Positions 19,047-44,508 of a DNA stretch of 64,000 nucleotides are shown here, piece after piece; positions within the stretch are counted from its first letter, which is position 1; every line of letters starts with the position of its first letter. The stretch is from assembly GCA_024226335.1 (NCBI GenBank), contig JAAELY010000545.1, positions 10,523-74,522 of the forward strand, in the 5' to 3' direction. The notes below the pieces were generated by a model. That model saw only the letters and a list, made by a program, of their open reading frames with translations, was not told the origin of the DNA and did not search any database. The DNA is from a bacterium (lineage in GTDB: Bacteria; Myxococcota_A; UBA9160; SZUA-336). The position numbers and the translations under genes were made by a program.

Positions 19047-19062
19047 TGACGGGCGCGGGTGC
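19047..19062. terminator. Candidate bidirectional hairpin between the convergent nirN and napB genes.
   Basis: GGGCGC-GGGT-GCGCCC. Confidence 0.3.
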
Positions 19063-19070
19063 GCCCAGGC

Positions 19071-21207: not shown

Positions 21208-21209
21208 GG

Positions 21210-23810: not shown

Positions 23811-23910
23811 GGATCCCTCCGTGGTATCGCGCCTTGTTGGCGCGTGCCGTTTTGTCCCTGCATCGGGACGGCGGCCCCAGTTACAGCAAGCCGCGTGCCG
23901 ATCCGTGAGT

Positions 23911-24150
23911 TCAGTCGCCGTCGGGCAGCGTCACGGATTCCGCCATTTCAGCCATCGCCACGTGTTCGAGTTGTTGGATTTCACGAAGGCGATCGGCGCC
24001 CTCACCTCCACTGACGGCTTCGATCGTCACCACAAGACGCCCCACACCGTCGTGGTGGTGTACCTGGGCCCAGGGAAACGCGTTTATTGCGGTAGATACC
24101 TTTTCGAGATTCTCGGGACGACACGCGACGACCACGCCAGAAACATTCAC
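23911..24150 (-). CDS. napD: NapD, NapA maturation chaperone (GTG start).
   Basis: 79 aa, immediately upstream of napA ([13 protein letters not shown]...). GAGG RBS. Confidence 0.65.
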
Positions 24151-26334: not shown

Positions 26335-26339
26335 GGCGC

Positions 26340-27900: not shown

Positions 27901-27902
27901 GA

Positions 27903-28511: not shown

Positions 28512-28590
28512 GATCCCGTCTCCTTACGACTGAAGCGCCCCGCAAAAAGGGGACGCTTCAGTTAGATGACGCTCACCCTCCGTGAACGCT

Positions 28591-30207
28591 TCAGTAAATA
28601 TCGTGAACTGTGTTGTACACGTTCCACTTGCCGGTGGGCGTTTGCAGCCAATCATTCTTGAGGCGCTGCTTCTCCTTCAGCGTCTTGTCGTCGTAAATGA
28701 TGACCTCGCCCTGCTTGTCCCATACCGACGCCCATACTTCATCGCCCGCCTTGTTGTACTCGAAGTGGACGATCTTTCCGTGGTCGGTGGCCTTCCAGCA
28801 CTTGGCACCCTCGTCGAAGGCGTCCTTTCTGAAGACACAGATCTGCTGGTTGTCGCCCTTTTCCTTGGACAAAGTTGCGTCAGTCCAGACGTGATTGCTC
28901 TTGGGATGCGTCTTCAGGAACAGTCCGGGACCACCGGTCTCCTCCTCTCGGACGACCTTCCAGGCGTGCTCCGGATGCCCGGCCGGGTCCGACCCGTACA
29001 CGGATATGAGTCCTTCACCTAGATGGGTGGTTGCGCTCACCGGTCCGTATTTCGGGTCTACCCAGTTCGCACCGCGTCCGGGATGTGGCTTTACCCCGGT
29101 CTCGAACTTGGTCACGAACTTCTTTTCCTTTGTATCCACGACGACGATCTGGTCACGCATGTTCGCCGCGATCAGGAGATAGCGCTTGGTGGCGTCCCAA
29201 CCTCCGTCGTGCAGGAACCGCTCGGTCGCGATCTGCGTCATCTTCAGGTTGTCGAGGTCAGAGTAGTCCACCAACCAGACCATTCCGGTCTCTTTGATCG
29301 CCACGACCCACTCGGAGTCGAAGTGCGAAGCGATGATCGTCGCCACGCGCGGTTCCGGGTGATACTCGTTTGTATCGTAGGTGGAGGATCGGGTGGAGAT
29401 GACCTTGATCGGCTCGAGGGTCTGTCCATCAACCACGACCATCTGCGGCGGCCAGTAGCAACCGACGATCGCCAACTTGTCGCGGAAGTCACCCTTGGGT
29501 CCCTTGTACTTCGAAACGTCAACGGATCGCGCGTCCAGGCAGACACGAACCTCGGCCACCACCTCGGGCTTCTTCTGGTAGAGGTCGATCAGGGTGAGCT
29601 TGCCGTCGCGACCGATCGTGTAGAAGTAACGACCGGTGAAGGAAGCTCGGAAAATGTGAACGGCGAAACCGGTCTTGAGGACGCTTACCGCCTCCTTGGT
29701 GTCGCCGTCAATGATTGCGGCCTTACCAACGTCGCGCAGGATGTAACCGAAGGTGTTGTCGATGTCCCGGCTGTGTTCGGGCTTCTTCGGCCGCTTGGAA
29801 ACCGGAATGTGGACCTTATGGGTCTCCTTCATCTCCTTCAGGCTCATCTCCGGCGGAATCGGCACCGGATTCTGTACAAACTTCGCCATCAGGGCCGTCT
29901 GGGCCTTGGTCATCTCACCTGTTCGGCCCCAGCCGGGCATTCCGGCGTCGGTACCTTCGAAGATCGTCTTTTCCAATTCGGGAAGCGTCTGCTCCAACAT
30001 CTTCTTGTCGGTGATGCCGGGGCCGGTAGCGCCCTTGCGAAGCGCACCGTGACAGCCGGAGCAGCGGTCGAAATAGATAAACTGCGCTTCCTCAAACTCC
30101 TTCTCGGAAAGCTTGGGAGCCGTTGCACCGCTGGCAATCGAGGGGGCGATCAGTGCAGTCGTCGCCAGGACCACCGCGAAGAACCGAAAAATTCGCAAGC
30201 CTGTCAT
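28591..30207 (-). CDS. nirS: Cytochrome cd1 nitrite reductase NirS. ATG at 30205-30207; the track ORF extends to 30429.
   Basis: MTGLRIFRFFAVVLATTALIAPSIASGA is a signal peptide. FDRCSGCHG is the heme c site. Followed by a d1 propeller ending ...TGKWNVYNTVHDIY. GGAGG RBS. Confidence 0.85.
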   Translation of the reverse strand: MTGLRIFRFFAVVLATTALIAPSIASGATAPKLSEKEFEEAQFIYFDRCSGCHGALRKGATGPGITDKKMLEQTLPELEKTIFEGTDAGMPGWGRTGEMTKAQTALMAKFVQNPVPIPPEMSLKEMKETHKVHIPVSKRPKKPEHSRDIDNTFGYILRDVGKAAIIDGDTKEAVSVLKTGFAVHIFRASFTGRYFYTIGRDGKLTLIDLYQKKPEVVAEVRVCLDARSVDVSKYKGPKGDFRDKLAIVGCYWPPQMVVVDGQTLEPIKVISTRSSTYDTNEYHPEPRVATIIASHFDSEWVVAIKETGMVWLVDYSDLDNLKMTQIATERFLHDGGWDATKRYLLIAANMRDQIVVVDTKEKKFVTKFETGVKPHPGRGANWVDPKYGPVSATTHLGEGLISVYGSDPAGHPEHAWKVVREEETGGPGLFLKTHPKSNHVWTDATLSKEKGDNQQICVFRKDAFDEGAKCWKATDHGKIVHFEYNKAGDEVWASVWDKQGEVIIYDDKTLKEKQRLKNDWLQTPTGKWNVYNTVHDIY

Positions 30208-30334
30208 CGTAGGACCTCCATACGCGCGCTGGTTTGCAAGCGGCATGCCCGGAGAGACGTTCTCGGGGACCGCCGGATAGTGCCGAATCTGCTGACTCAT
30301 CGGGTGCAATACCCTACAGCCCGCATTCAAACTG

Positions 30335-30347
30335 TGACAATTCGTCA
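30335..30347. promoter_or_regulatory. Palindrome TGAC-aattc-GTCA ~130 bp upstream of the nirS start; possible CRP/FNR (Dnr/NnrR)-type site with atypical N5 spacing.
   Basis: tgacaattcgtca. Confidence 0.2.
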
Positions 30348-30392
30348 AACGCAATCTCTTATAAGGTGCGGCTAAGTGGCGCAGACTAGCAA

Positions 30393-30788
30393 CTAGCCCA
30401 CGTCTGCGAGTGTGGTCGTTGAGGCCCACGAACGGAAGGCTTCACTCATCTGGACCCAGGCCGGATGCAATGGGCAGGGATCGCTCGGGTCACACGCACC
30501 CCAACCGAAAACACACCGGTCGTCACCGGGATAAGCGTCGACCGCAGCCAGGATTTCTGTAAAGGGAATCTCCGACGGTGGACGCGCCAGCTCGAAGCCC
30601 CCTCCCACTCCTTTGTAAGACTCGAGCACCCCGGCCACGACGAGACGTCGGAGAATTTTGGCCAGATACGGCGCGGGAATGCCCGTCTCATTGGAGAGAT
30701 CGCGAGCGCGGACCGGCGTCTCGTCGGGATTCGCCGCGAGCCAGGCCGCTGCGCGAAGAGCGTATTCGGCTGTCTGTGACAGGACCAT
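30393..30788 (-). CDS. nsrR: Rrf2-family transcriptional regulator, NsrR-like NO sensor.
   Basis: N-terminal wHTH (TAEYALRAAAWLA..). Three-Cys cluster CVFGWGACDPSDPCPLH. Upstream of nirS and divergent from the nnrS-like gene. Confidence 0.75.
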   Translation of the reverse strand: MVLSQTAEYALRAAAWLAANPDETPVRARDLSNETGIPAPYLAKILRRLVVAGVLESYKGVGGGFELARPPSEIPFTEILAAVDAYPGDDRCVFGWGACDPSDPCPLHPAWVQMSEAFRSWASTTTLADVG

Positions 30789-30801
30789 CCGCTGCCCGAC
30801 C

Positions 30802-30826
30802 TCGTTTCGCAGTCTCGTTTCGCAGA
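30802..30826. repeat. Tandem direct repeat 2x ctcgtttcgcag (1-nt spacer) in the nsrR/nnrS-like divergent region.
   Basis: cctcgtttcgcag t ctcgtttcgcag, seen directly in the sequence. Confidence 0.5.
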
Positions 30827-30876
30827 TTTCGTCCCGCCCTGGTGCTGCAAAACATGGACCGGAAGAACTCGATATC

Positions 30877-30889
30877 TGCTACTGTAGCA
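30877..30889. promoter_or_regulatory. Inverted repeat TGCTAC-T-GTAGCA in the nsrR/nnrS-like divergent promoter region; candidate Rrf2 operator.
   Basis: Perfect 6-1-6 palindrome in the sequence. Confidence 0.3.
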
Positions 30890-30961
30890 TCCTGGTGGAC
30901 CAACGGATCTGAAGGTCCACTATCCCCCCCATGGATCATCGCAGGCGAGGAGGCTCGAGGA

Positions 30962-32404
30962 ATGTCCGCGTCCGGAAGCATGCCGCAACCGGAAGAGTCG
31001 CCCGTCGCACGCCTGTGGCTGGGACTCTCCCTGTTGGTGCTGGTCTTCGCGGGCCTGTTTGCGCTGGCCGTGGTCGTCGCTCGAACGCCACCGTTCGACC
31101 GCCTGGTGACCGATCCACTGTTCTTCAAACGATGCCTGGCCGCGCACGTAAACCTGGCCCTGGTCGCGTGGTTCTACTCCTTCCTGGCCGGCCTGCTCTT
31201 CCTGCTTCCGGGACGCGAACGCCCCGGGTGGCTGGCGAGGCACTCGGTCCATATCGCTGGCACGGGCATCGCCCTTTTACTCGTCGGCGCGTCCATGCCC
31301 GGCGGTCGCCCCGTACTCGCGAACTACATCCCGAGCATCGACCATCCACTTTTCCGCACGGGTCAGTTCCTGTTCGGCCTGGGCGTTCTCACCAGCTTGT
31401 TCGACCGTCGGTTGTTCTGGGCGCGCGATGCGGTATCGGGCCCCCTGCAACTTTCGGATGCATGTATCGCGGGCCTGCGGGTTGCCGCACTCGGACTGTT
31501 GCTGGCGTTGCTTACTTTCGGTCTCTCCGCCCTGAGCCTTCCGGCGGGACTCGACCCCGATGCGCGCTGGGACTTGCTGGTATGGGGCGGGGGCCACGTT
31601 CTTCAGCTGGTTTGTGTAATCGCAATGCTCTCGGTCTGGCTGCTGTTGCTCACACCGGTACTGGGCAGACCCCCGGTCAGCGGCCGGGGCGCGACCTGGA
31701 TCTTCGGCGCGATGCTCATGCCCTGGACCCTGGGCCTGCTCTTCCTGCTTCAGGGAACCGGGAGTCCGGCCTATCGGACCGGCTTCACCTCGCTGATGCA
31801 GTGGGGAATCTTCCCGCCCGTACTGGTGTTTCTGGCACTGTGCGGACGCGCGTTGGTACTCGCCGTGCGCGAGCAGCGCATCGGCCGACGAGCTTTCGGC
31901 GATCTGCGCATATCGGCCTTCCTGGTGAGTGCTGCACTCACCTTGGTGGGCTTCGCCCTCGGTGCCTCGATCCGCGGATCGAACACGATGGTACCGGCGC
32001 ACTATCACGCCTCGGTCGGTGCGGTGACGGTGGCCTTCATGGCGGCCGCCTACCCGATACTCGCCTGCTTTGGGCTGGCACTTCCCACTGCGCGGATGCG
32101 CAAAGCCGCGGCCTGGCAGCCGCTATTGTACGGTGGGGGTATGCTAGTGTTCGCAGCCGGTTTTGCGCTTGCGGGCGCCTACGGCATGGGCCGAAAGGTC
32201 TATGGCGCCGAACAGGCAGCGCGAGGGCTGGCCGAGTCGGTGGGGCTGGGCTTGATGGGGTTTGGCGGCTTGATCGCAATTGTCGGGGGAATGCTTTTCC
32301 TCGTCGTGGTCGCCAACGCCTGGTGGCGCGGCATCGAATCGGATGAACCGATTACTCTTCACCTGGGACGGAGGTGGCGCTTTGGAAACGAAGAACACGG
32401 ATGA
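30962..32404 (+). CDS. 12-TM membrane protein, NnrS-like (heme/copper membrane protein of NO-responsive regulons). Assignment tentative.
   Basis: 12 predicted TM helices. Intramembrane His in TM2, TM3 and TM6, plus HYH in TM10. GAGGAGG RBS before the ATG at 30962. Divergent from the Rrf2 gene. Confidence 0.45.
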   Translation: MSASGSMPQPEESPVARLWLGLSLLVLVFAGLFALAVVVARTPPFDRLVTDPLFFKRCLAAHVNLALVAWFYSFLAGLLFLLPGRERPGWLARHSVHIAGTGIALLLVGASMPGGRPVLANYIPSIDHPLFRTGQFLFGLGVLTSLFDRRLFWARDAVSGPLQLSDACIAGLRVAALGLLLALLTFGLSALSLPAGLDPDARWDLLVWGGGHVLQLVCVIAMLSVWLLLLTPVLGRPPVSGRGATWIFGAMLMPWTLGLLFLLQGTGSPAYRTGFTSLMQWGIFPPVLVFLALCGRALVLAVREQRIGRRAFGDLRISAFLVSAALTLVGFALGASIRGSNTMVPAHYHASVGAVTVAFMAAAYPILACFGLALPTARMRKAAAWQPLLYGGGMLVFAAGFALAGAYGMGRKVYGAEQAARGLAESVGLGLMGFGGLIAIVGGMLFLVVVANAWWRGIESDEPITLHLGRRWRFGNEEHG

Positions 32405-32559: not shown

Positions 32560-33087
32560 ATGAGTATCCATCAGCCACCGGCTGACTGGTTCAAGGCACC
32601 GGACAGCACCGAGCGCCTGTGGGTGGGACTCGCGTTGATCTGGTGCCTGGTGATGTTCATCGCCATGCCGTACTGGTATTTTTACGGCAAGCAGAACAGC
32701 GTCGGTGAGGGGTACCTCGTCGAGCCGATGGAGTTCAGCCAGCGTGTCAGCAAGTTCGTAGAGACCAATAAGGTCGGCGAATTGAAGGGCATTCCGATCG
32801 TCGAGGCGGCGCCGGGAGGCGACGTCTATCTACAGGCGATGATGTGGAGCTGGTTCCCGGTCATCCAGATGCGCAAGGATCAAACCTACCGTCTGCACAT
32901 CTCGTCGTTGGACCTGCAACACGGCTTCTCGATACAGCCGCTCAACATGAACTTCCAGATCCTGCCCGGCTACGACCACGTACTGACCATCACGCCGACG
33001 AGTGCCGGCGAATTTTCGATCGTATGCAACGAGTTCTGCGGTATCGGGCACCACCTGATGACCGGCCGCATTCTCGTCGTCGAGTAG
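32560..33087 (+). CDS. Heme-copper oxidase superfamily subunit II, single TM plus a cupredoxin CuA domain (B-family / NOR-like).
   Basis: DLQHGFSI followed by CNEFCGIGHHLM gives the H...CxExCGxxHxxM CuA ligand set. 175 aa with one TM helix. Confidence 0.8.
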   Translation: MSIHQPPADWFKAPDSTERLWVGLALIWCLVMFIAMPYWYFYGKQNSVGEGYLVEPMEFSQRVSKFVETNKVGELKGIPIVEAAPGGDVYLQAMMWSWFPVIQMRKDQTYRLHISSLDLQHGFSIQPLNMNFQILPGYDHVLTITPTSAGEFSIVCNEFCGIGHHLMTGRILVVE

Positions 33088-33108
33088 GAGAGGCCGCGAT
33101 GACCACGA

Positions 33109-34847
33109 CGACCATCGGAGACGTCCCGTTCGAAGGCGGGGCTTCGGGAAACCACCAGGGCGCAGTCCGCAGTTGCGATACAACGGGCCTGCCCGTCTGC
33201 CTGGGCGCACAGCGCTTCATCAAGCTTCACGCAGTAGTCGCCGTCGTGTGGCTACTCATCGGCGGCACCGCCGCCATCCTGATCGCACTCACGCGTTGGC
33301 CGGCCGTGCATCTGCTCCCCGCAGACTGGTACTACCGGCTTCTGACACTGCACGGTCTCGACATGCTGATCTTCATGATCTTGAACTTCGAGATCGCGAT
33401 CCTGTATTTCGCAGGCACGACGTTGCTGAATTGCCGACTAGCATCGACCAAGGCCGCCTGGCTCGCTTTCGCGCTGATGCTGATCGGCGGCATCATGGTG
33501 AATATCGCGGTACTGAACGGCAGTAGCGATGTGCTGTTGACGTCGTACGTGCCCCTCAAGGCCAGCCCCTGGTTCTACCTGGGCATCATCCTCCTGGCCG
33601 TGGGTGCGCTGGTCGCAGTAATCAACTTCTTGGCCACGCTCTATATCGCGAAGCGAGACCACACCTACGAGGGTTCGGTGCCGCTCGTGGTATTTGGCGC
33701 GACGGCTGCCGCCATCATCGCAGTCGTGACCCTCTTGCACGGCGCGGTCGTGATGATCCCGACCTGGCTGTGGTCGATGGGCGTGGTCGAGTACATCGAT
33801 CCGGCCTGGTACCGCATAACCTGGTGGGCACTGGGCCATATGTCCCAGCAGATCAACGTATGCGCAATGGTCTCGGTCTGGTATCTGCTGGGGACACTGA
33901 CTGTAGGAGCTCAGCCGGTAAGTCAGCTCGTGTGCCGGGGCGCTTTCGTGCTCTACATCTTGTTCATCAACGTGGCTTCGGCCCACCACATCCTGGTCGA
34001 TCCGGCCGTGGGCGCAAGCTGGAAGATCTGGAACACCGGTTACGCCATGTACCTGGCCGTACTGGCTTCGATGATCCACGGCCTGACCGTACCGGCCTCG
34101 ATCGAGGTCGCCCAGCGCAAGAAGGGCTTCAACCGCGGTCTGTTCGGCTGGCTGGTGGCAGCTCCGTGGAGCAACCCGGGTTTCTCGGGTTTCTTCCTTT
34201 CGCTGATCATTTTCGGCTTCGGCGGCGGCATCACCGGAGTCGTGCTGGGCACGCAACAGATCAACATCATGGCGCACAACACACTGCGCATTCCCGGGCA
34301 CTTCCACGTGACCGTCGTAGGCGGTACGGCACTGGCTTTCATGGCAGTCACCTACTATGTGGTGCCCCTGATTTTCCAGCGCGAGTTCTACCTGAAGACC
34401 TGGTGCCGCATCCAGCCGTGGCTGTTCGGCGGCGGTATCACCCTGATGTCGATCGGCATGTCGTTCGCAGGTTCCTACGGGGTCCCGCGCCGGCACTGGG
34501 ACATGGAGTTCACAGGGGCCATGTTCTCGACCGGATTCGACTCGGGCGCACACCTGATGCTGGGCTTGATGGGAGTGGGTGCGATCATCGCAGTCACCGG
34601 CCTGTTGGTATTCGTCCTGCTCGTGGTCGCGGCCGTATTCTTCGGCCGCTCGAACGCGGGCCGCGCGATGACACCGTGGCACGAGGAACGGCAGGTCGCC
34701 GAGAAGTTCCGCACCGAAGACACAGCCGGAGATGACGAACACAGCATGCCGGGAACTCTTGTACTGGCACTGTTCTTCCTGGCCTGCTTCGTCGTGTACT
34801 ACTTCGCCAACTGGATGTGGCTGGCCGACGTCTGGCACGTGCGCTGA
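33109..34847 (+). CDS. Heme-copper oxidase superfamily subunit I, B-family-like. The helix VI Tyr is replaced by Gln (candidate eNOR-type NO reductase).
   Basis: TM2 LTLHGLDMLIFM (heme His). Helix VI WWALGHMSQQ aligns to WFFGHPEVY (His kept, Tyr replaced by Gln). Helix VII ASAHHILV (the HH pair). Helix X IPGHFHVTVVGG (HxH). RBS GAGG before the ATG at 33109. Confidence 0.75.
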
Positions 34848-34863
34848 TCGTGGAGAAACGACG

Positions 34864-35784
34864 ATGGAACGGATCACGCGCTTCGTAACGGGGGGCGGGC
34901 TACCCGCCTTTGCGCTGCCACTGCTGGTCTTCTATCAGGGGTTGCTGGTCGCTCTCCTGTTCACGCCACCCGCGGCGACGGGGCTGGGTGCGTTCGCTGA
35001 GGATTTCCGTCTCTGGTGTTTCGGTTACGACCCGTCGACGGGCAATCTGAGATGGGGCCCGGTTGTGGCCATGCTCCTACCACCACTGGTGCTGGGCGTG
35101 GCCTTTCTGGTTTTCTGGTGGAAACAGCTGGGCGAGATGGCGATGCGACCGATGACGCTGATCCGACCGGCCGCACTCGCGGCCAGCCTGGTCATTGCCG
35201 CCGCTTTCGTCTTCTCCCTGCTAGGCGGCAGCAGCCCGCAGGCGGGCGACCTGAGTTTTCCGGCAGACGCATTGCGCACGAGTTTCAAACCGCCCGAGAT
35301 CTCGCTGACCAGCCACACAGGGGAACCCGTCGACCTGGCACGATTGAAAGGCAAGGTCGTCCTGGTGACGGCTGTCTACGCCAGTTGCCCGCACACCTGC
35401 CCGCTGATCCTGACCCAGGCAAAAAAAGCCATCGCCGAACTGGATCCCACTGAGCGCCGAGATCTGCACGTGATCGGCGTGACCATCGACCCCTCCAACG
35501 ACAGCCCGGAAGTACTCGCCGAGCTGGCCGAGATGCACGACCTGACACCCCCTCTTTACAACCTGGTGACCGGTGACACCGCGGAAGTAGAGCGGGTTCT
35601 CGACGATCTCGGCGTCGCCAGGCAGTACAACGAAGAAACTGGACAGATCGACCACGCCAATCTCTTCGTTCTGGTGGACCGAAGCGGTCGCATCGCGTAC
35701 CGCTTCTCGCTTGGAGAGAACCAGCAGCGCTGGCTGGTTTCGGGCCTGCGCGTGCTACTGCACGAGCCCGGAAACCTTGGCTGA
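34864..35784 (+). CDS. SCO1/SenC-family copper chaperone with an N-terminal multi-TM membrane domain.
   Basis: Thioredoxin-like domain with CPHTCP (Cx3CP). 3-4 N-terminal TM helices. RBS GGAGAAA. Confidence 0.7.
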   Translation: MERITRFVTGGGLPAFALPLLVFYQGLLVALLFTPPAATGLGAFAEDFRLWCFGYDPSTGNLRWGPVVAMLLPPLVLGVAFLVFWWKQLGEMAMRPMTLIRPAALAASLVIAAAFVFSLLGGSSPQAGDLSFPADALRTSFKPPEISLTSHTGEPVDLARLKGKVVLVTAVYASCPHTCPLILTQAKKAIAELDPTERRDLHVIGVTIDPSNDSPEVLAELAEMHDLTPPLYNLVTGDTAEVERVLDDLGVARQYNEETGQIDHANLFVLVDRSGRIAYRFSLGENQQRWLVSGLRVLLHEPGNLG

Positions 35785-37834
35785 GCAGGCTCCGTCGCTA
35801 GGGCAACCCGTCCGCGCACACGGGGTCCTGGAACGACTCGAACGCGGTTTTCTGTACCTGGATCGACTGGTTGAGACGTTCCTCCCCCGATCGCTGAACG
35901 CCCTGCACCACACCGGCGCGATCGCAATCACCGCTCTTTTTGTCGCCACCGTCACGGGCGTGCTGCTGTTGCTCTGGTACCGACCGAGCGTCCACATGTC
36001 CTACTCATCGGTCGCGGCCATGTCGAGTCATCCTTGGACCGCCGGACTGATGCGCTCGCTGCACCGCTATAGCTCCGACGCCTGCGTTTTCTTCGTGCTG
36101 ATCCACTTCCTGCGCGTACTTTTTGAAGGGCGCTTTGCGGGGGCGCGCTGGTTGGCCTGGGTCACCGGGGTGATCACCGTCGGTTTTCTGGAGGTCGTCG
36201 GCTGGAGTGGTTACTGGCTGGTCTGGGATGCTCGCGCCCAGCACATTGCGACCGGCACGGCGCGCATGCTCGACGTACTGCCGATCGTGGTAGACCCGAT
36301 GGGGCGCTCCTTCCTGTTCGACGAAGCGGTCAACTCCCTGCTCTTCTTCGTCGTCTTCTTCATCCACATGCTGGTTCCAATCAGCCTCGCGATCGGCCTT
36401 TGGCTGCACCTGACACGTGTGAGTCGCTCGCGATTCGTCACCGAAACTCCGATGACGATCTGGACCCTGGGCCTTTTGATGCTGCTCTCGGTGGCCTATC
36501 CGGCGACGAATGCTCCTATCGCCGACCTGACCGCACTCGGGCAGAGCTTCACCATGGACTGGTGGTACCTGATGCCGCTCGCGTTCACCGACCGCTTATC
36601 CGGAGGCGCACTCTGGTCACTGGCGCTCGTGGTCGGTCCGGTGCTCGGCACCTTCCCCTGGTGGATGACCCGAGGCAAACCGAAACCCGCACGCGTCGAC
36701 CCCGCGCGCTGCAATGAGTGCCTGCAGTGTTACAACGATTGCCCCTTCGAGGCGATCACGATGATCCCCCGCACCGAAGCCAACCCGCGCTACGCCCTCC
36801 AGGCCGACGTGAATCCCGCGCGCTGCGTAGGTTGCGGAATCTGCTCGGGTTCCTGTGACTCCATCGCGATCGACCTGGACTGGTTCAACATCCGCGAACA
36901 GCGCAAGAAGATCGAAGGATGGCTGGCTGAAGCCGCAGAAAGGGACGAAAAGATCGATATCGCCGTCACCTGCACGAGTTCTGCGGGCGGCCTCCTTTCG
37001 ATCGACCGCGAAACCGGCGTTTGCAGCGAATTGCCGGGCTACCGCGTGCTCGAGGCACCGTGTGCGGGCTGGCTGCATCCCCTTACGCTCGAGCGAGCAC
37101 TGCGTCGCGGCGCCGATCGCGCGATCATCATCGGCTGTGGCGGAGAGTGCCACTATCGCGAGGGCACCGACTGGCTGAATCTTCGCCTGTCGGGGGAGCG
37201 CAATCCGACGCTGCGCACGCAATTCGTGGAGCGTGAGCGCATTTCCACGCTGTTCTTCGACCGCACGCGCAAAGCCGAGATGATTCGGGTCGCGAACACG
37301 CTTCACGACGATGGAACACGCGCGGCATCGAAACCCCTTTCGACTTTGCGCATGGGCCTGGCGTTCGTCACTACCGCCGTTATTACCGCGATGATCATCG
37401 GGTTGGTGAGCGATCTCAATTACTCCGCGCCGCAGGCCGATGGCTCGCAGCTCGTCGTTACGTTCAAACACCCCGGGCAGATGAGTGAAGACTGCCACGA
37501 ACTCTCGGAGGAAGAGAAGGCTGCGCTTCCCGTGCATATGCGCCTGGAGAAGATCTGCGACCGGGGACGCTCGGATGTGCGCCTGGCCGTGTACCTGGAT
37601 GGCGCATCCGTCCTGGAACGCGCCTACCCACCTGCGGGTTTCTGGGGCGATCTCAACAGCCTCGCTATCGAGGAGATCAACGTGAAACCGGGCGAACATC
37701 TCGTTGGCGTAAAGATCGGGGACAGCCGCGATCCCGATGAGTGGACCTTCGTCGCAGAGCGCAAACTGACTTTCGGCCTGGATAAGCGCGAAGTGGTCGC
37801 ATTCGACCGGCTCGCCGGTTTCAAGTGGTACTGA
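35777..37834 (+). CDS. Fusion protein: diheme cytochrome b (bc1/b6-type 4-helix core), then a 2x[4Fe-4S] ferredoxin domain, then an MvhD/FlpD-like domain, then a TM helix and a ~170-aa C-terminal domain. The start is uncertain: TTG 35777 or ATG 35711.
   Basis: Helix B LHRYSSDACVFFVLIH and helix D IHMLVPISLAIGLWLH are both H-x13-H. CNECLQCYNDCP and CVGCGICSGSCD are ferredoxin clusters. RAIIIGCGGECHYREGTDW is the MvhD-like CHY..G motif. A TM follows (LAFVTTAVITAMIIGLV). Confidence 0.65.
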   Translation: MAEQAPSLGQPVRAHGVLERLERGFLYLDRLVETFLPRSLNALHHTGAIAITALFVATVTGVLLLLWYRPSVHMSYSSVAAMSSHPWTAGLMRSLHRYSSDACVFFVLIHFLRVLFEGRFAGARWLAWVTGVITVGFLEVVGWSGYWLVWDARAQHIATGTARMLDVLPIVVDPMGRSFLFDEAVNSLLFFVVFFIHMLVPISLAIGLWLHLTRVSRSRFVTETPMTIWTLGLLMLLSVAYPATNAPIADLTALGQSFTMDWWYLMPLAFTDRLSGGALWSLALVVGPVLGTFPWWMTRGKPKPARVDPARCNECLQCYNDCPFEAITMIPRTEANPRYALQADVNPARCVGCGICSGSCDSIAIDLDWFNIREQRKKIEGWLAEAAERDEKIDIAVTCTSSAGGLLSIDRETGVCSELPGYRVLEAPCAGWLHPLTLERALRRGADRAIIIGCGGECHYREGTDWLNLRLSGERNPTLRTQFVERERISTLFFDRTRKAEMIRVANTLHDDGTRAASKPLSTLRMGLAFVTTAVITAMIIGLVSDLNYSAPQADGSQLVVTFKHPGQMSEDCHELSEEEKAALPVHMRLEKICDRGRSDVRLAVYLDGASVLERAYPPAGFWGDLNSLAIEEINVKPGEHLVGVKIGDSRDPDEWTFVAERKLTFGLDKREVVAFDRLAGFKWY

Positions 37835-37873: not shown

Positions 37874-38803
37874 TTGACTGAGTTTTCAGGAGCAACCATG
37901 ACGGTCGTGGACCCGGGCATCGCGCTGACTTCGAAAAGGACCTGGTCCGATCGGGCTCGCGCCTACTTCTCCCTCACACGCCCCCGTCTGCTGCCGCTCG
38001 TCTTGTTGACGGGGCCTGCGGCAATGATGCTCGGGAGCGCGTGGCCGGGAGCGGGCACGGCGACGGCGATCGTCGTGGCTACGGGCCTGCTGACCGGCGC
38101 TGCCGGTACTCTCAATGCCTGGTACGAGCGCGACCGGGACGCACTCATGGAGCGCACACGCGACCGCGCGCTACCGGCTCAGCGGATCTCCCCTCGGAGC
38201 GCACTCTGTTTCGGGCTGTTGCTAGCGACACTCGGGCTCGTGCTCGTTGGCGCCGCCGGTGGCTGGCTTGCCTTCGCAATCGGCCTGGCCGCCCTGCTCC
38301 ACTATCTGCTCGTCTACACCGTCTGGCTGAAACCGCGAACTCCGCTCGCGGTGGTCGTGGGAGGGATCTCGGGAGCGATCTCTCCACTGGTTGCGGGCGC
38401 AGCCGCTTCTGGCCAGATCGACCTCTGGAGCCTGGGACTGTTTGCGATCGTATTCGTGTGGCAGCCACCCCATTTCTGGGCAATCGCCCTGTATCGCCGC
38501 GATGAATACGCCAAAGCTGGATTCCCGGTATTGCCCAGCGCAATCGGGGCCCGCGCCACCCGCTGGCACCAACTCGCCTGGGCTCTCGCGTTGATTCCGG
38601 TGACGCTGATTCCCTGGCTGATCGGCCCGCTCGGTTTTGGTTACCTCGTCACAGCCGTGGCCGGCGGAACCTTCTTCTGCCTGCGCATCATTCAGGCTAT
38701 GCGCTGTAATTCGAAGACAGCCGATCGAGCGGTCTTCGCGGCTTCGCTTCTCTACCTGACCGGCTTGTTCGCGGTACTCACTCTCGAACTCGTGTGGGCC
38801 TGA
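37874..38803 (+). CDS. ctaB: Protoheme IX farnesyltransferase (heme O synthase).
   Basis: UbiA-family motif NAWYERDRDALMERTRDRALP. Nine TM helices. Confidence 0.8.
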   Translation: MTEFSGATMTVVDPGIALTSKRTWSDRARAYFSLTRPRLLPLVLLTGPAAMMLGSAWPGAGTATAIVVATGLLTGAAGTLNAWYERDRDALMERTRDRALPAQRISPRSALCFGLLLATLGLVLVGAAGGWLAFAIGLAALLHYLLVYTVWLKPRTPLAVVVGGISGAISPLVAGAAASGQIDLWSLGLFAIVFVWQPPHFWAIALYRRDEYAKAGFPVLPSAIGARATRWHQLAWALALIPVTLIPWLIGPLGFGYLVTAVAGGTFFCLRIIQAMRCNSKTADRAVFAASLLYLTGLFAVLTLELVWA

Positions 38804-39189: not shown

Positions 39190-41487
39190 GTGTCGATCTC
39201 ACGACTGACGCGCTGCGCGGGCCTGATCGGGCTGGCGCTCGGATTCCTGGTAACGGGTGCGCTTACAGCGCATGCACAGACACTCCAGGAAGTGATGAAA
39301 GCTCGCGAACTGACTCAGAAAGACGTGCTGGCCGCAGCCAAAACCTACGTACCGACGGGCAAGCGCGACGAGTACCTCGTGTTCAGCTCGGGCGGTCAGA
39401 ACGGCTCGGTCATCGTGTACGGCATTCCTTCGATGCGCCTTCTGAAGTACATCGCGGTATTCGCGCCCGAGCCGTGGCAGGGCTACGGCTTCGAGGAAGA
39501 AAGCAAGCGGGTGCTCGAGCAAGGCTATATGAACGGGCGGGAAATCACCTGGGGCGACACGCATCACCCCGCGCTTTCCGAAACCGGAGGCAACTACGAC
39601 GGCCAGTACCTGTTCATCAATGACAAGGCCAATCCGCGCCTCGCGGTGATCGACCTGCACGACTTCGAGGCCAAGCAGATCGTCGTCAATCCGATCTTCC
39701 AGTCCTCGCACGGCGGTGCGTTCGTTTCCAACGACACGGAGTACGTGATCGAAGCCGCGCAGTATCCCGCGCCTCTGGGTGGTGAGTATGCGCCGCTGCA
39801 ACAGTTCGACGACAAGTATCGCGGCGGCGTCACCTACTGGAAGTTCAACCGCGAGAAGGGGCGACTCGAGCCCGAAAACTCGTTCTCGATCGAACTTCCG
39901 CCGTACTCACAAGACCTGAGTGACTTCGGCAAGGGGCCCAGCGAATCCTGGACATTCACGAACTCGTTTTGCACTGAGCGATACGTGGGCGGGATCGAAC
40001 TCGGGCGTCCGCCCTTCGAGGCCGGTTGCTCGGCCAAGGACACCGACTACCTGCACATGGTCAATTGGCGCAAAGCGGTGAAGGTCGCGGCGGCCGGCAA
40101 GACGACAAAGATAAACGGACATAACGTCATTTCGATCGAGACGGCCGTGAAGGAAGGCCTGGTCTTTCTGATTCCCGAACCGAAGAGCCCCCACGGAGTC
40201 GATGTGTCGCCCGACGGCAAGTACATCGTGATCTCGGGCAAGCTCGACTCGCACGTATCGGTCTATAGCTTCGCGAAGATGAAAGCCGCGATCGACGCCA
40301 AGAAGTTCGCATCGACCGACCCCTACGGGATTCCAATCCTCGATCTCAAGGAGTCTTTGCACACCCAACTGGCGCTTGGACTGGGCCCCCTGCACTCGCA
40401 GTTCGGTTCCGAGCCGGGCGTGGTCTACACCTCGCTGTATGTAGACTCGCAGGTGGCGCGCTGGAACTATCTCGAAGGCAAGCTGCTCGACAAGATCTCC
40501 ATCCACTACAACATCGGCCACCTGATGACCATGCACGGAGATACGGTCGCGCCGGAAGGCAAGTATCTCGTGTCCTTGAACAAGCTGGCGATCGACCGTT
40601 TCAATCCGGTCGGCCCGTTACATCCGCAGAACCACCAACTGATCGACATCTCGGGCAAGAAGATGCAACTGCTCTACGATATGCCACTTCCGCTGGGAGA
40701 ACCGCACTACGCCCAGGCGATCCGCGCGTCCCTCCTTAAACCGCGGGTGCGCTACAAGTCGGGCACGAACACCCGAACAGGTCAACGCTCACCTTTCAAG
40801 ACGCGTGCTGGAGAAGAGCGTATCGAGCGCAACGGCAAGAAGGTCGAAGTCTTCGGTACGTTGATCCGCTCGCACATCACGCCCGAGATCATCGAAGTCG
40901 AAGAAGGGGATGAAGTCACCATCCACCTGAGCAATCTGGAGCGGGCCGAGGACCAGACGCATGGATTCACGGTCAGCAAGTACAACGTGCACGGCTCTTT
41001 CGAGCCAGGCGAGACTGCGACGGTTGCCTTCACCGCTGACGTCGCGGGAGTCTTCCCGTACTACTGCACGGAGTTCTGCTCTGCGTTGCACCTGGAGATG
41101 GAAGGTTATCTGCTCGTCAGACCCAAGGGCTTCGTGGCCCCGGTCGGCGAACTCGAAGCCAAGGAACGTTACACCAAGGCTGACTTCGAAAAGCAGGTAA
41201 AGACCAACGTAGAAACCCAGGCCGTGATCGATTCAGTCGTTGCCTACATCACGAGCGTCAACTACAAGAGCTTTCCCGAAGTGGCGAGTCTGATGGAAGA
41301 CGCCGTCGATCAACTCGGCCGCATGGAAGGAGCCAAGGAGAAGGCGGAAACAGCCGCAGCCGCCGGAGACTATCAGAACGCGACTCTCTGGGCCGGACAG
41401 TGGTGGCAATACCAGGTAAAGGCCGCCGACATCGGTCTTCGGGCAAAGACTTTCCTGGAGCAACACGGCGCGACACCGGTGCAGTAG
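39190..41487 (+). CDS. nosZ: Nitrous oxide reductase NosZ, Sec-dependent (clade II) type with a ~110-aa C-terminal extension. GTG start.
   Basis: Sec-type signal (no twin-Arg). ITWGDTHHP is the CuZ His region. CTEFCSALHLEMEGY is the CuA motif. 765 aa. AAGAGGGGG RBS. Confidence 0.9.
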   Translation: MSISRLTRCAGLIGLALGFLVTGALTAHAQTLQEVMKARELTQKDVLAAAKTYVPTGKRDEYLVFSSGGQNGSVIVYGIPSMRLLKYIAVFAPEPWQGYGFEEESKRVLEQGYMNGREITWGDTHHPALSETGGNYDGQYLFINDKANPRLAVIDLHDFEAKQIVVNPIFQSSHGGAFVSNDTEYVIEAAQYPAPLGGEYAPLQQFDDKYRGGVTYWKFNREKGRLEPENSFSIELPPYSQDLSDFGKGPSESWTFTNSFCTERYVGGIELGRPPFEAGCSAKDTDYLHMVNWRKAVKVAAAGKTTKINGHNVISIETAVKEGLVFLIPEPKSPHGVDVSPDGKYIVISGKLDSHVSVYSFAKMKAAIDAKKFASTDPYGIPILDLKESLHTQLALGLGPLHSQFGSEPGVVYTSLYVDSQVARWNYLEGKLLDKISIHYNIGHLMTMHGDTVAPEGKYLVSLNKLAIDRFNPVGPLHPQNHQLIDISGKKMQLLYDMPLPLGEPHYAQAIRASLLKPRVRYKSGTNTRTGQRSPFKTRAGEERIERNGKKVEVFGTLIRSHITPEIIEVEEGDEVTIHLSNLERAEDQTHGFTVSKYNVHGSFEPGETATVAFTADVAGVFPYYCTEFCSALHLEMEGYLLVRPKGFVAPVGELEAKERYTKADFEKQVKTNVETQAVIDSVVAYITSVNYKSFPEVASLMEDAVDQLGRMEGAKEKAETAAAAGDYQNATLWAGQWWQYQVKAADIGLRAKTFLEQHGATPVQ

Positions 41488-41497
41488 GAGATCAAGA

Positions 41498-41839
41498 GTG
41501 ATACGACCGATTTTTTCATTCACACTCGTCCTGACCCTCGCTCTGGCATGGGCCGGCTCGGGAAGCGCAGAAGATTCCGGCAAGAATCCAGACGGCGCGA
41601 CGCTGTATAACGAACGCACTTGCGTCGCCTGTCACGGGAAGGATGCGAAAACCCCGATCCTACCCGTGTATCCGAAACTCGCCGGGCAAAACGCCGACTA
41701 CATGCTGCAACAGATGAAGGACATCAAGAGCGGCGCGCGTAACAACGCGAATACAGCGGCGATGAGGGCTGTGATGGTCCTGGTAAATGAACAAGAGATG
41801 GGAGCTCTGGCGAGCTACATCTCCACCCTCAAGCCATAA
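41498..41839 (+). CDS. Monoheme c-type cytochrome, nos-cluster associated.
   Basis: Signal peptide. CVACHG. Confidence 0.75.
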   Translation: MIRPIFSFTLVLTLALAWAGSGSAEDSGKNPDGATLYNERTCVACHGKDAKTPILPVYPKLAGQNADYMLQQMKDIKSGARNNANTAAMRAVMVLVNEQEMGALASYISTLKP

Positions 41840-41852
41840 AGGAGAGCATCGG

Positions 41853-42566
41853 ATGCTCAGTCCGCGAACACCCGCTTCCATCATCGTATTGCTGCTGCTC
41901 GTCTTCACGCCCGCACTGGCACTAGCTCAGGCACCAGCCAAGAGCGAAGGCATCGAGTCAGAGGGCTATAAGTGGAACGACATGATCGGAGAGAAGGTCA
42001 AGGCGCTCACGCTCGAAGGTGACATCGAGAACGGCGAAGAAGCGTATGAGATCTGCGCCGCCTGCCACCTGCCCAACGGCGCGGGTCGTCCTGACGGAAC
42101 CTTTCCGCAGCTTGCGGGCCAGCACTCGACGGTGTTGATCAAACAGATCGCGGATATTCGCGAGGGACGGCGCGATAACCCGACCATGTACCCCTTCGCC
42201 AAGACGCTTGTCGATCCCCAGGAGTTGGCAGACGTGGCGGCCTACATCCAGACCCTGCCGATTCCCACCGGCGCAGGGAAGGGTGGAGGCGAAGCACTGG
42301 AACTGGGCGAGAAGCTCTACAAGCGCGACTGTACTTCGTGTCACGGGAAATTCGGCGAAGGGAACAAGGACAAGTTCTTCCCCGTACTCGCGGGCCAGCA
42401 CTACAAGTACCTGCTTCGACAGATCGGCGACATTGCCGAAGGACGACGCCGAAATGCCAACCCCGATATGGTGAAGGTGGTCAAGAGTTACAAAGAAGAT
42501 GAACTGAAGGCCGTGGTCGACTACATGTCTCGACTGCGCTGGCCCGAGCGCGAAGCCAAGGACTGA
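41853..42566 (+). CDS. Diheme cytochrome c4-like.
   Basis: Signal peptide. CAACH and CTSCHG are the two CXXCH motifs. AAGGAGAG RBS. Confidence 0.75.
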   Translation: MLSPRTPASIIVLLLLVFTPALALAQAPAKSEGIESEGYKWNDMIGEKVKALTLEGDIENGEEAYEICAACHLPNGAGRPDGTFPQLAGQHSTVLIKQIADIREGRRDNPTMYPFAKTLVDPQELADVAAYIQTLPIPTGAGKGGGEALELGEKLYKRDCTSCHGKFGEGNKDKFFPVLAGQHYKYLLRQIGDIAEGRRRNANPDMVKVVKSYKEDELKAVVDYMSRLRWPEREAKD

Positions 42567-42569
42567 AGA

Positions 42570-43265
42570 ATGCAGCGTGGCCCGATCCCCGCCGCGCTGA
42601 GCGCACTCGCGGTCGTATTGATGACCGCGGGCTATTTCTCGCCGATGTGGTGGGTGTCGCTGACGGCTCCCAACTACCCGGAACACACGTTTCCAGACGG
42701 CGTTCGCATTCACATGCACTTCAACGGCGTGTTCAACGGTTGCCAGGCCCGCGAAAGCGAGGAAGTCTACGAAGAAGAGGGCCTGGATTGCGTGCACGAG
42801 ATGAACACCATCAACCACTACATCGGCATGGAGGCGCTGGAGCGCGGCGCACAGCACGAGTTCGCGATTGCGCCGTTTGTTTTCGTGCTCTTCGGTGCAC
42901 TCGCGATCGTCGCGCTGTTCTACTCGGGACCACTGTGGTGGATACTCCCTCTGCCGGCGATCTTGCTCCCTGTGTTATTCGTGGTCGACTTCGCGGCCTG
43001 GCTCTGGTGGTTCGGCCACAACCTCCACCCCTGGGCGGCGTTCACGGTAAAACCGTTCATGCCTACAGTGCTCGGACAAGGCAAAGTCGCACAGTTCAGC
43101 ACGTATTCTTATCCCCAGTACGGAATGGGCCTGATGTGTCTCGCATCCTTCAGCCTGCTGCTCTCGACTCTGATCCGTCGCAAGACGATCGCAAAGCAGA
43201 AGTCGGCTTCCTCCGTCGGTCCGCGGGCCGGGGAGGCAACGGGTGAGCCAGGCGCTTCGCTTTGA
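42570..43265 (+). CDS. nosB: Integral membrane protein, NosB-like (clade II nos-cluster accessory).
   Basis: 4-5 TM helices. Sits between the nos cytochromes and nosD, as in Sec-type nos clusters. Confidence 0.4.
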   Translation: MQRGPIPAALSALAVVLMTAGYFSPMWWVSLTAPNYPEHTFPDGVRIHMHFNGVFNGCQARESEEVYEEEGLDCVHEMNTINHYIGMEALERGAQHEFAIAPFVFVLFGALAIVALFYSGPLWWILPLPAILLPVLFVVDFAAWLWWFGHNLHPWAAFTVKPFMPTVLGQGKVAQFSTYSYPQYGMGLMCLASFSLLLSTLIRRKTIAKQKSASSVGPRAGEATGEPGASL

Positions 43266-44508
43266 TGCGCGGCGGAAGCGCGCCCTCCTAGCCGCGCTCT
43301 GGCTGGCTCTCCTGCTGCCAAGCGCGGAAGCCGTACCCGGTTCTGGGCTTCCCTCGTTTCAGAGACTCGTCGATGCCACGCCCACAGGAGGTCTGCTCCA
43401 GCCCAAGGCAGGAATCTACGCTGGGCCAGTCGTCATACGCCGAGCCATGCGTATCGACGGCGCGAACTCGGTCGAGATCCGCAACGGAGGCGTGGGTACG
43501 GTCGTGACCATCAATGGCGATGACATCGTGCTGCGCGGACTGCACCTGAGCGGATCCGGCGAGATTCACGATACCCTGGACGCCTGTGTTCGGGTTCGAG
43601 GCCACCGGAATACGATCGAACAGAACCGACTCGACGATTGCCTGTTCGGAATCGAACTCCAGAAATCTGACGACAATCTGCTGCGCGGGAATACGATCAC
43701 CTCCAAGCCCTTGATGATGGGCCTGCGCGGTGACGGGATCCGGCTGTGGTACAGCATGCGCAATCGTATTGAACACAATCGGATTCGCGACGTGCGCGAC
43801 ACAGTCGTCTGGTATTCGCGCGACAACGTGATCTCAGACAACGTCACGAGTGGAAGCCGCTACGCGCTGCACTTCATGTACGCCCAGGAGAACGTGGTCG
43901 AGCGAAATGACTACCACGGAAATCTGGTAGGCATTTTTCTCATGTACAGCGACGACGTGATCGTCCGAGACAACCGCATCTATCGATCGGTGGGTCCCAC
44001 GGGAATGGGGATCGGCTTCAAGGAGACGAGCAGAGTCCGAGTAGAGCGCAATTCGATCCTGTACAACGCCGCCGGTATCTATCTGGACGTCTCACCCTAC
44101 CAGCCTGGATCGACCAATCAGATCCTCGACAATCGGATCGCGTTCAACGGAAGCGGGGTGCTGTTCCACACGGACTGGCCGGGGAATGTGCTCAGCGGGA
44201 ATCGCTTTGAAGGCAATCACGCCCAGGTAGCCGTTCGCGGGGGTGGGAGCGTGCGACGCAATTCCTGGAAGGGCAACTACTGGGACGATTACCAGGGCTT
44301 CGATCGCGATGCAGACGGGATCGGAGACACGCCTTACAAGCTGATGGCCTACTCCGATCGGCTCTGGATGGAAGTTGCGGCCATCGAATTCTTCCGAGCC
44401 TCACCCGCACTCGAAGCACTCGACTTCCTCGAACGCCTACTCCCCTTCAGCAAGCCAACCGTCATTCTCGAAGACTCACAGCCTGTCTTCCATGGGGATG
44501 GAGACTGA
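43243..44508 (+). CDS. nosD: NosD, periplasmic right-handed beta-helix (CASH) copper-processing protein.
   Basis: Signal peptide. Repeated parallel beta-helix units (NRIEHNRIRDV, VERNDYHGNLVGIF, VERNSILYNAAGIYL). Confidence 0.8.
   Translation: MSQALRFDARRKRALLAALWLALLLPSAEAVPGSGLPSFQRLVDATPTGGLLQPKAGIYAGPVVIRRAMRIDGANSVEIRNGGVGTVVTINGDDIVLRGLHLSGSGEIHDTLDACVRVRGHRNTIEQNRLDDCLFGIELQKSDDNLLRGNTITSKPLMMGLRGDGIRLWYSMRNRIEHNRIRDVRDTVVWYSRDNVISDNVTSGSRYALHFMYAQENVVERNDYHGNLVGIFLMYSDDVIVRDNRIYRSVGPTGMGIGFKETSRVRVERNSILYNAAGIYLDVSPYQPGSTNQILDNRIAFNGSGVLFHTDWPGNVLSGNRFEGNHAQVAVRGGGSVRRNSWKGNYWDDYQGFDRDADGIGDTPYKLMAYSDRLWMEVAAIEFFRASPALEALDFLERLLPFSKPTVILEDSQPVFHGDGD

Follow-up and report, generated by a model that had tools for sequence, protein, structure and literature searches.

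A bc-type cytochrome b fused to cytoplasmic iron–sulfur domains is a widespread, mis-annotated companion of eNOR nitric oxide reductases

We analyzed a gene in a 64-kb stretch of a myxococcotal contig (JAAELY010000545.1, assembly GCA_024226335.1; the whole stretch of 64,000 nucleotides is referred to as the window, and positions are counted from its first letter). The gene encodes a membrane protein in which a bc-type cytochrome b is fused to iron–sulfur (FeS) domains, here called the cytochrome b–FeS protein, and it stands in an operon for a nitric oxide (NO) reductase of the eNOR family (described in PMC11214002). Known modules are combined here in an uncharacterised arrangement, and the family of such proteins is a widespread companion of eNOR whose annotation is misleading. 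The gene is real, and two b hemes and three cytoplasmic FeS clusters are predicted for its product, which probably moves electrons for eNOR or for eNOR assembly. The eNORs are among the commonest and least studied NO reductases and make the greenhouse gas N2O. This protein family bears on their electron supply and energy conservation.

The open reading frame (ORF) singled out in an earlier note on this DNA is borne out as a gene for 685 amino acids (aa), and all the motifs quoted in that note are present and conserved. The TTG start codon overlaps the stop codon of the upstream gene for a Sco copper chaperone by 8 nt. An identical (100%) 685-aa protein is found in the public record P0001, labelled 'hydrogenase iron-sulfur subunit', a label that conceals the link of the family to eNOR. 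An AlphaFold2 model of the full protein (mean pLDDT 73, pTM 0.68) and the hydropathy profile agree on the layout: helices A-D (residues 46-215), E (224-240) and F (276-297), then a ferredoxin domain followed by an alpha/beta MvhD-like domain, a seventh transmembrane helix (TM7, 523-545), and an all-beta domain (547-685). The layout given previously (four-helix core, ferredoxin, MvhD, one transmembrane helix) thus stands for those parts, to which helices E and F, omitted there, must be added; the soluble C-terminal domain comprises ~140 aa and not the ~170 aa estimated before. By hydropathy and the positive-inside rule, the N-terminus, the FeS domains and short Arg-rich loops are predicted to be cytoplasmic, and hydropathy places the AB, CD and EF loops and the C-terminal domain in the periplasm. 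The cytoplasmic position expected for the ferredoxin and MvhD-like domains is therefore recovered, in the scheme of bc1/b6f.

Pfam profiles for Cytochrome_B, Fer4/Fer4_7 and FlpD all match above their cut-offs, and no NarI-type family, the type of cytochrome b in the QmoC/HdrE-type fusions with which the earlier note contrasted the protein, was found in the Pfam scan. NCBIfam gave solely partial, sub-threshold similarities (ExtP and cytochrome b6 for the N-terminal core, HdrA2 for residues 302-505). Conservation is given below as counts in an alignment of 104 full-length relatives that reach down to 28% identity, and PDB matches come from a search with a profile built from 24 homologues.

We conclude that the first six helices are a bc-type cytochrome b, for which two bis-His b hemes are predicted. 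The core matches Cytochrome_B (residues 33-215) with an E value of 7.6e-18 and 65.5 bits against a cut-off of 27.2, and the family profile matches cytochrome b6 in the PDB (3e-24). The putative heme ligands H96 and H110 in helix B and H197 and H211 in helix D, both pairs with the H-x13-H spacing already noted as typical of bc cytochromes, are each kept in 104 of 104 relatives. The motifs RSLHRYS and GY-x-L-x-WD, common to bc1 and b6f, are also present. The Cys that binds heme cn (CxGG) was not found; the aligned position reads HTGAIA. A Foldseek search with the model aligned ~290-310 columns to the cytochrome b of bc1, so the similarity extends beyond the four-helix core.

The periplasmic cd-loop and ef-loop elements that form the Qo pocket in bc1/b6f are retained, as judged from the sequence, with a PEWY-like match that is weak. 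In the ef loop, which contains a short helix in the model, the motif MDWWYLMP...R occupies the place of the Qo-site motif PEWYFxP...R. The best PDB match to a profile of residues 216-305 was b6f subunit IV, a weak match (E 0.71) in which MDWWYLLP..R aligned with LPE-WYFYP..R and D261 with the Glu of PEWY. D261 is kept in 97 of 104 relatives and is Asn in six more. In the cd loop, G145 and D151 are invariant and W150 is found in 101 of 104.

Helix F leads directly into the domain for two [4Fe-4S] clusters and then into the MvhD-like domain, on the cytoplasmic side. The ferredoxin domain scores 30.3 bits with Fer4 (cut-off 21.1) and 29.8 with Fer4_7 (cut-off 27) over residues 305-362, and the family profile matches the C-terminal ferredoxin domain of HdrA in the PDB (5odc_A, 2e-11). 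Two ferredoxin-type Cys clusters had been proposed; they are C312/315/318/322-P and C350/353/356/360, and all eight Cys are ~100% conserved. The proposed MvhD/FlpD-like domain is likewise supported. Pfam FlpD matches residues 420-509 (E 5e-10, 39.9 bits, cut-off 22.3), the family profile matches MvhD chains in the PDB (6.7e-9; matches include 5odc_D, 9sw2_D and 7bkb_F), and Foldseek returned MvhD in 5odc_D, 5odh_D and 8rvu_F, with a target-normalised TM-score of ~0.66 for 5odh_D and 8rvu_F. The domain probably binds a [2Fe-2S] cluster through C399 (kept in 102/104), C429 (101/104), C454 (100/104) and C458 (78/104); the last three align with Cys of the MvhD chains and C399 lies outside that alignment. 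The NCBIfam profile for HdrA2 (NF040770) matches residues 302-505 (E 1.4e-18, 66.4 bits, cut-off 1100), which covers the ferredoxin-MvhD part only. No Hdr or Mvh genes were identified in the window or in the conserved neighbourhood.

The further transmembrane helix noticed earlier after the MvhD-like domain coincides with a hydropathy peak at 523-548 and is predicted to bring the chain back to the periplasmic side. The domain that follows is a generic Ig-like fold in the model, and is not Rieske, cupredoxin or CcoG-like; no Pfam family matched residues 547-685. C573 and C594 are both present in 70 of the 104 relatives and both missing in 33, with a single Cys in 1. This covariation points to a structural disulfide, as would suit a domain in the periplasm. 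Among the candidate ligands, H587 and M588 of a P-x-H-M-R motif are kept best, each in 91 of 104. D608 and D625 are conserved as well, H641 less strictly.

The family bears out that the ORF is a genuine gene and no product of a frameshift, a possibility raised in the earlier note. A homologue search returned >1,200 relatives from independent assemblies. The best 120 were examined for length and architecture; they have 680-726 aa (save one truncated entry), the same Pfam set and 51-61% identity. In a scan at one genome per species, relatives were encoded in 330 genomes from at least eight phyla, with carriers that include Myxococcota, Verrucomicrobiota, Planctomycetota, Calditrichota, Gemmatimonadota, Rhodothermales and Spirochaetota; Fodinibius halophilus 2W32 is a cultured carrier. 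An exhaustive HMMER search at the level of 50%-identity cluster representatives yielded 406 clusters with E<=1e-30, with members also in Thermodesulfobacteriota, Gammaproteobacteria and Bdellovibrionaceae, and the full-length architecture is kept to 28% identity. In hundreds of species, from Myxococcota, Verrucomicrobiota, Planctomycetota, Bacteroidota-related groups, Proteobacteria and others, the family conservedly accompanies eNOR.

Two entries could be taken to favor an artefact, in which originally separate genes for cytochrome b, ferredoxin and MvhD were merged through a frameshift or an error of assembly, or a pseudogene was left. In the cultured alphaproteobacterium Defluviimonas sp. 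SAOS-178_SWC (plasmid NZ_CP156080, L087 11456-13551) the homologue is split into a 526-aa ORF (cytochrome b, ferredoxin and MvhD-like domains) and an overlapping 172-aa ORF (TM7 and C-terminal domain), which implies that the latter module is able to act as its own polypeptide. In the database protein P0158, a Sco domain is fused in frame ahead of a cytochrome b–FeS homologue. The linker in P0158 has no transmembrane helix and is topologically inconsistent, so this is probably a read-through or frameshift artefact of overlapping genes, and we set the entry aside as evidence for a Sco fusion. Against an artefact in the window stand the number, lengths and independent origin of the relatives, and the conservation of the cofactor ligands; the chance of one is vanishingly small, and we regard it as excluded. 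In a Leptospiraceae metagenome-assembled genome the whole operon occurs on two contigs (L044 and L054), and the coordinates and identities of the matches are the same on both; the operon is either truly duplicated or was doubled in assembly or binning.

The oxidase next to the gene is an eNOR, as assigned from the signature of its catalytic subunit and from a subunit II with a CuA motif. Subunit I is closest to the B-family ba3 oxidase (1e-38) and keeps the three His ligands of the metal site and the heme ligands, with Gln336 at the position of the cross-linked Tyr237 of ba3. Gln at the position of the cross-link Tyr is diagnostic of eNOR (Hemp and Gennis 2008, as used in PMC8756737). An operon of heme-copper oxidase (HCO) or NO reductase type had been proposed for the gene, placed between Sco and heme O synthase, and both the operon and the position proved correct (Table 1). 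At the head of the operon is a degenerate paralogue of HCO subunit I (HCO-I), with a true start probably near 30962 and 25% identity to eNOR subunit I. It keeps the His for both hemes (AAHVN, HYH) and one metal-site His (GGGHVLQ), and lacks the HH pair of the CuB/FeB site; its sequence suggests that it may bind hemes without a catalytic metal site. The N-terminal part of Sco is unusually long and hydrophobic, apparently with several transmembrane helices before the CPHTCP thioredoxin-like domain. A typical Sco has one anchor helix.

The operon recurs with the family. Window neighbours were searched by tblastn in the 80 closest related loci, which span at least eight phyla, and the order is HCO-I-like protein, CuA subunit II, eNOR subunit I, Sco, cytochrome b–FeS gene and, often, heme O synthase; nearly all loci with a sufficiently long contig keep it. 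We found the HCO-I-like gene in 54 of the 80 loci, subunit II in 59, eNOR subunit I in 69, heme O synthase in 43 and Sco, directly upstream of the cytochrome b–FeS gene, in 77; most absences fall at a contig end close to the gene. The association with HCO subunits that lack the Tyr is uniform: H-x3-Q, in which the Gln replaces the cross-linked Tyr, is present in each of the 64 subunit I genes amenable to scoring. Clustering of neighbourhood ORFs, which is noisy in high-GC DNA, identified no widely conserved genes beyond the six of the operon, no other electron donor gene in the eNOR operon, and no partner gene for the MvhD-like domain. The linkage to eNOR also holds on the Defluviimonas plasmid. 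Among five relatives at ~30% identity, four stand beside HCO subunit I and Sco in a partly rearranged order and the fifth is an orphan on a short contig; genes for heme A synthase, a Crp-type regulator, NirS, qNOR, NnrS or hemerythrin are found near them. Heme A synthase is adjacent solely in some distant relatives; it had no tblastn match in the window or in the 80 closest loci, and was rejected as a conserved neighbour.

Table 1. Features of the cytochrome b–FeS gene, the eNOR operon and the surrounding denitrification genes in the window.
Feature	Positions	Strand	Basis or remark
Cytochrome b–FeS protein, whole gene	35777..37834	+	685 aa + stop codon, TTG start
bc-type cytochrome b four-helix core, helices A-D (residues 33-215)	35873..36421	+	Pfam PF00033
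Helices E and F with periplasmic ef loop (residues 224-297)	36446..36667	+	resembles b6f subunit IV / C-terminal half of cytochrome b
Cytoplasmic 2x[4Fe-4S] ferredoxin domain (residues 305-365)	36689..36871	+	Pfam Fer4 / Fer4_7
MvhD/FlpD-like domain (residues 394-512)	36956..37312	+	Pfam PF02662
TM7 (residues 523-545)	37343..37411	+	AlphaFold secondary structure, hydropathy
Predicted periplasmic all-beta domain, Ig-like / transthyretin-like (residues 547-685)	37415..37831	+	AlphaFold model
Degenerate HCO subunit I paralogue, head of operon	30578..32404	+	Pfam COX1, E 5e-12
eNOR subunit II	32560..33087	+	domain search and CuA motif (H...CNEFCGIGHHLM)
eNOR subunit I	33099..34847	+	B-family-like; GHMSQQ, HH pair, HFH
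Sco/SenC copper chaperone	34732..35784	+	CPHTCP; likely start 34864
Heme O synthase (CtaB/CyoE)	37874..38803	+	TIGR01473, 246 bits
NirN/NirF-like cytochrome d1 protein and radical SAM gene	15175-17525	-	
NapA	21210-23810	-	
DsrP/NrfD-like membrane protein, DsrO-like four-cluster FeS protein, two multiheme cytochromes c	25111-28511	-	
NirS	28591-30429	-	
Sec-type clade II NosZ	39190-41487		

For the function of the protein we favor, tentatively and at somewhat less than even confidence, an accessory redox module that would serve as a Rieske-less, quinol-oxidising electron entry and link the quinone pool and a cytoplasmic FeS chain to eNOR. The predicted cofactors would form one transmembrane electron wire, from the [2Fe-2S] cluster through two [4Fe-4S] clusters, heme bH and heme bL to a putative pocket on the periplasmic side. 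Quinol would be oxidised at the Qo-like pocket and pass its first electron to a high-potential periplasmic acceptor, for which the CuA domain of eNOR subunit II is the candidate. The tethered C-terminal domain, arranged topologically as a Rieske head on its anchor, could position this CuA acceptor. The other electron would pass via bL and bH into the FeS chain on the cytoplasmic side, and from there to a partner on the MvhD-like domain or back to the quinone pool. Flow direction, acceptor and partner are all inferred from these features. In favor of quinol entry are the strong conservation of the Qo-pocket elements, the strict linkage to eNOR, the lack of another donor gene in the eNOR operon, and the fact that the other N-oxide reductases of the window each have a putative quinol-dehydrogenase module of their own (DsrOP-like proteins and multiheme cytochromes at NirS, NosGH at NosZ). 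If correct, models of denitrification energetics and N2O production need a new component, and bc-type cytochrome b would have a Rieske-independent mode of action.

Several observations weigh against this reading. Quinol oxidation at a Qo site requires a high-potential first acceptor, and none is identifiable near the pocket. As remarked in the earlier note, neither a Rieske protein nor cytochrome c1 is encoded nearby: the motif C-x-H...C-x-x-H occurs in no ORF of at least 90 aa in the window, the neighbours scanned for domains gave no Rieske domain, and the 80 related loci have no further conserved gene; with the rest of the genome out of view, the negative for the Rieske subunit covers the window. 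The C-terminal domain has neither a Rieske or cupredoxin fold with its metal-ligand motif nor a Cys-containing metal site, the MvhD-like domain lacks a conserved partner nearby, and the PEWY-like match is weak, as noted above. The eNOR of Rhodothermus marinus, purified as two subunits, shows activity when given artificial donors (PMC11214002). The gene lies between maturation genes (Sco, and CtaB or CtaA) and is translationally coupled to Sco. Finally, eNOR-signature loci of a Thermus thermophilus megaplasmid and of Thermomicrobium roseum have neither Sco nor the cytochrome b–FeS gene. Thus, the protein is an accessory of a large eNOR subclade and no universal subunit, and is dispensable for catalysis as such. 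A homologue search with the eNOR subunit I of the window returned close relatives only (72-85% identity).

In a bifurcating version, which we consider unlikely, the very high potential of NO reduction, acting via CuA, would pull one quinol electron from the Rieske-less Qo-type site, and the other would be driven across the membrane via bL and bH into the low-potential cytoplasmic FeS chain and reduce NAD(P)+ or ferredoxin. Such a module would add a site of energy coupling to denitrification and offer another, second way to run Qo chemistry with no Rieske protein.

The position beside Sco also suggests a maturation factor, the main and a serious rival though a somewhat doubtful one, in which the protein would supply eNOR biogenesis with reducing equivalents moved across the membrane or along it, comparable to CcoG/FixG in logic and not by homology. 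Possible tasks include the reduction of Cu(II) or Fe(III), reduction of the Sco CxxxC pair in the periplasm at the His/Met-bearing C-terminal domain, and supply of electrons for heme A/O synthesis. The immediate upstream position of Sco with its stop/start overlap fits this role, as do the flanking genes, which in the window encode heme O synthase and in distant relatives encode heme A synthase, and the two eNOR loci without the cytochrome b–FeS gene are also without Sco. The gene shows 42-58% sequence identity across loci, a range close to those for Sco and CtaB, and the catalytic subunit is clearly better conserved (51-85%; mostly 58-80%). The P-x-H-M-R motif and the conserved Asp and His of the periplasmic domain, and the catalytic competence of two-subunit eNOR alone, point the same way. 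However, the C-terminal domain has no detectable homology to that of FixG, conservation of H565 and H641 is only partial, and Defluviimonas has Asn in place of H587. Moreover, eNOR operons commonly have Sco and heme O synthase and lack cytochrome b genes (Ferrigenium preprint, bioRxiv 10.64898/2026.01.22.701106), and a full bc-type Qo-like pocket with a three-cluster FeS chain seems beyond the needs of a chaperone. Overall, the evidence for maturation together with Sco is about as good as that for the proposals of quinol entry or an FeS link. If the protein is an assembly factor, it represents a new kind of redox-driven metallocentre maturation protein. The entry and assembly roles are testable in the cultured carriers Fodinibius halophilus 2W32 and Defluviimonas sp. 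SAOS-178_SWC.

The order of the predicted cofactors bears on a simpler alternative, a redox loop or conduit without bifurcation between a cytoplasmic partner on the MvhD-like domain and a quinone site or periplasmic acceptor. A donor in the cytoplasm could feed quinone or eNOR, which might for instance serve to detoxify NO rapidly; in the opposite direction, quinol could reduce a cytoplasmic acceptor. The sequence of [2Fe-2S] cluster, [4Fe-4S] clusters and diheme b mirrors that of SdhB/SdhC and NarH/NarI, and the protein may be likened to diheme succinate:menaquinone reductases. MvhD is an adaptor that docks on FeS and flavin proteins in solved Mvh-Hdr complexes, and a Ferrigenium protein reported to have cytochrome b, [Fe-S], FAD and NADH domains, which resembles the family by description, suggests a link to pyridine nucleotides. 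Hemerythrin-family genes directly downstream of the cytochrome b–FeS gene in two loci add a possible iron-centre repair function that fits an FeS protein exposed to NO. A conduit has no conserved partner gene in the neighbourhood, and would leave the strict linkage to eNOR and Sco and the conserved tethered periplasmic domain unexplained; we think it improbable.

Hemerythrin-family genes were found directly downstream of, or close to, the cytochrome b–FeS gene at L084 10096-10500, L087 13568-13972 and L085 258-749, the last adjoining NnrS. They may encode proteins that repair iron centres (YtfE/DnrN type), and their presence could reflect NO damage to FeS clusters. In the Thermus thermophilus plasmid NZ_LR027520 (L088 6983-8668), eNOR subunit I (GHGAQQ) adjoins a nitrite reductase. 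It has GHFKG where other subunits have GHFH, which would mean His/Lys ligation of the low-spin heme; such ligation is described for some eNORs (Murali et al.).

We found no functional study and no characterised protein with the domain order of the cytochrome b–FeS protein in the literature, and the main text of Murali et al. 2024 does not mention it. The claim that no protein of this order has been described must be limited to characterised proteins. Beyond them it needs qualification, given that the family is abundant and that a 2026 preprint on Ferrigenium straubiae (bioRxiv 10.64898/2026.01.22.701106) describes similar cytochrome b plus [Fe-S] genes. In that preprint the usual eNOR operon consists of subunits II and I, heme O synthase, Sco1 and an 'eNOR scaffold protein of unknown function', which may be the HCO-I paralogue found here. 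Two extra genes, considered 'rather unusual', encode cytochrome b with FeS, FAD and NADH domains and cytochrome b with FeS domains. Both are reported from the proteome of a denitrifying Fe(II)-oxidising culture, and as a speculation the authors put forward a supercomplex in which the reduction of NO is coupled to that of NAD+. Like the gene in the window, these genes combine bc-type cytochrome b with cytoplasmic FeS domains beside eNOR I/II, heme O synthase and Sco; the likeness is one of description. Unlike the family analyzed here, they have no MvhD domain, seventh helix or periplasmic domain described, and they are treated as unusual and specific to Ferrigenium, whereas this family is widespread.

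Anammox bc complexes with FeS/NAD(P) subunits likewise combine bc-type cytochrome b with cytoplasmic FeS modules, and short cytochromes b that co-occur with FeS/NAD(P) proteins have been reviewed (PMC5600118). Dibrova et al. 2017 distinguished a cytochrome b 'subfamily H' of large proteins with unknown function, which may include the present family. One protein with cytochrome b6, FeS and FlpD domains is listed in an appendix table of PMC8756737.

With b6f (b6 plus subunit IV) and the cytochrome b of bc1, the protein shares the diheme four-helix core, helices E and F (with the weak PEWY-like match in the ef loop) and the topology. It differs from them in the lack of Rieske protein, cytochrome c1 or f, helices G and H and the heme cn Cys, in the motif (M)DWWY in place of PEWY, and in the fusion to cytoplasmic FeS domains and a periplasmic domain. 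With the HdrA2 module and MvhD of the methanogen Mvh-Hdr complex it shares a 2x[4Fe-4S] ferredoxin followed by an MvhD fold with conserved Cys. In contrast to these, it lacks the flavin domain of HdrA, has neither HdrBC nor hydrogenase genes in its vicinity, is anchored in the membrane via cytochrome b, and occurs in denitrifying bacteria, not methanogens.

CcoG, a cupric reductase for cbb3 assembly, has membrane helices, two cytoplasmic [4Fe-4S] clusters, a transmembrane helix and an Ig-like domain. CcoG/FixG and the NapH/NosH family follow the same logic, with membrane helices, two cytoplasmic [4Fe-4S] clusters, an extra transmembrane helix and a beta-sandwich, and CcoG/FixG is also encoded with a heme-copper enzyme and copper-handling genes. 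However, CcoG has no b hemes and a different membrane domain. In a comparison with FixG, whose sequence was read from an unannotated S. meliloti pSymA record, hhalign gave a probability of 0.15% for the C-terminal domain and BLASTP matched the ferredoxin motif only, so homology to CcoG/FixG was ruled out. The best NCBIfam match to the cytochrome b core was ExtP (NF040969), a b-type cytochrome of a selenite/tellurite reduction operon (residues 44-219, E 2.9e-27, 95.9 bits against a cut-off of 290); ExtP has ~205 aa and lacks the FeS, MvhD and C-terminal domains. The 'orf1'/CbaD of sNOR/bNOR clusters (PMC3475470), which encodes ~190 aa with six transmembrane helices, has the same operon position after senC as the cytochrome b–FeS gene. 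Identity with the 'orf1' of norSY-senC-orf1 in ammonia oxidisers was rejected from its description as a short six-helix protein and from the Asn, not Gln, that sNOR has at the Tyr position.

The eNOR operon lies within a complete denitrification island (15175-30429 and 39190-48372, on either side of the operon), with the genes for nitrate, nitrite and N2O reduction given in Table 1; NirS is accompanied by heme d1 genes. Beyond NosZ, genes were identified for a diheme cytochrome c, NosD, NapG/NapH-like NosGH and an ABC transporter. Between NapA and the DsrP/NrfD-like quinol module lies a gene for a 325-aa WD40 beta-propeller protein (24147-25124, minus strand), an unusual neighbour for respiratory genes.

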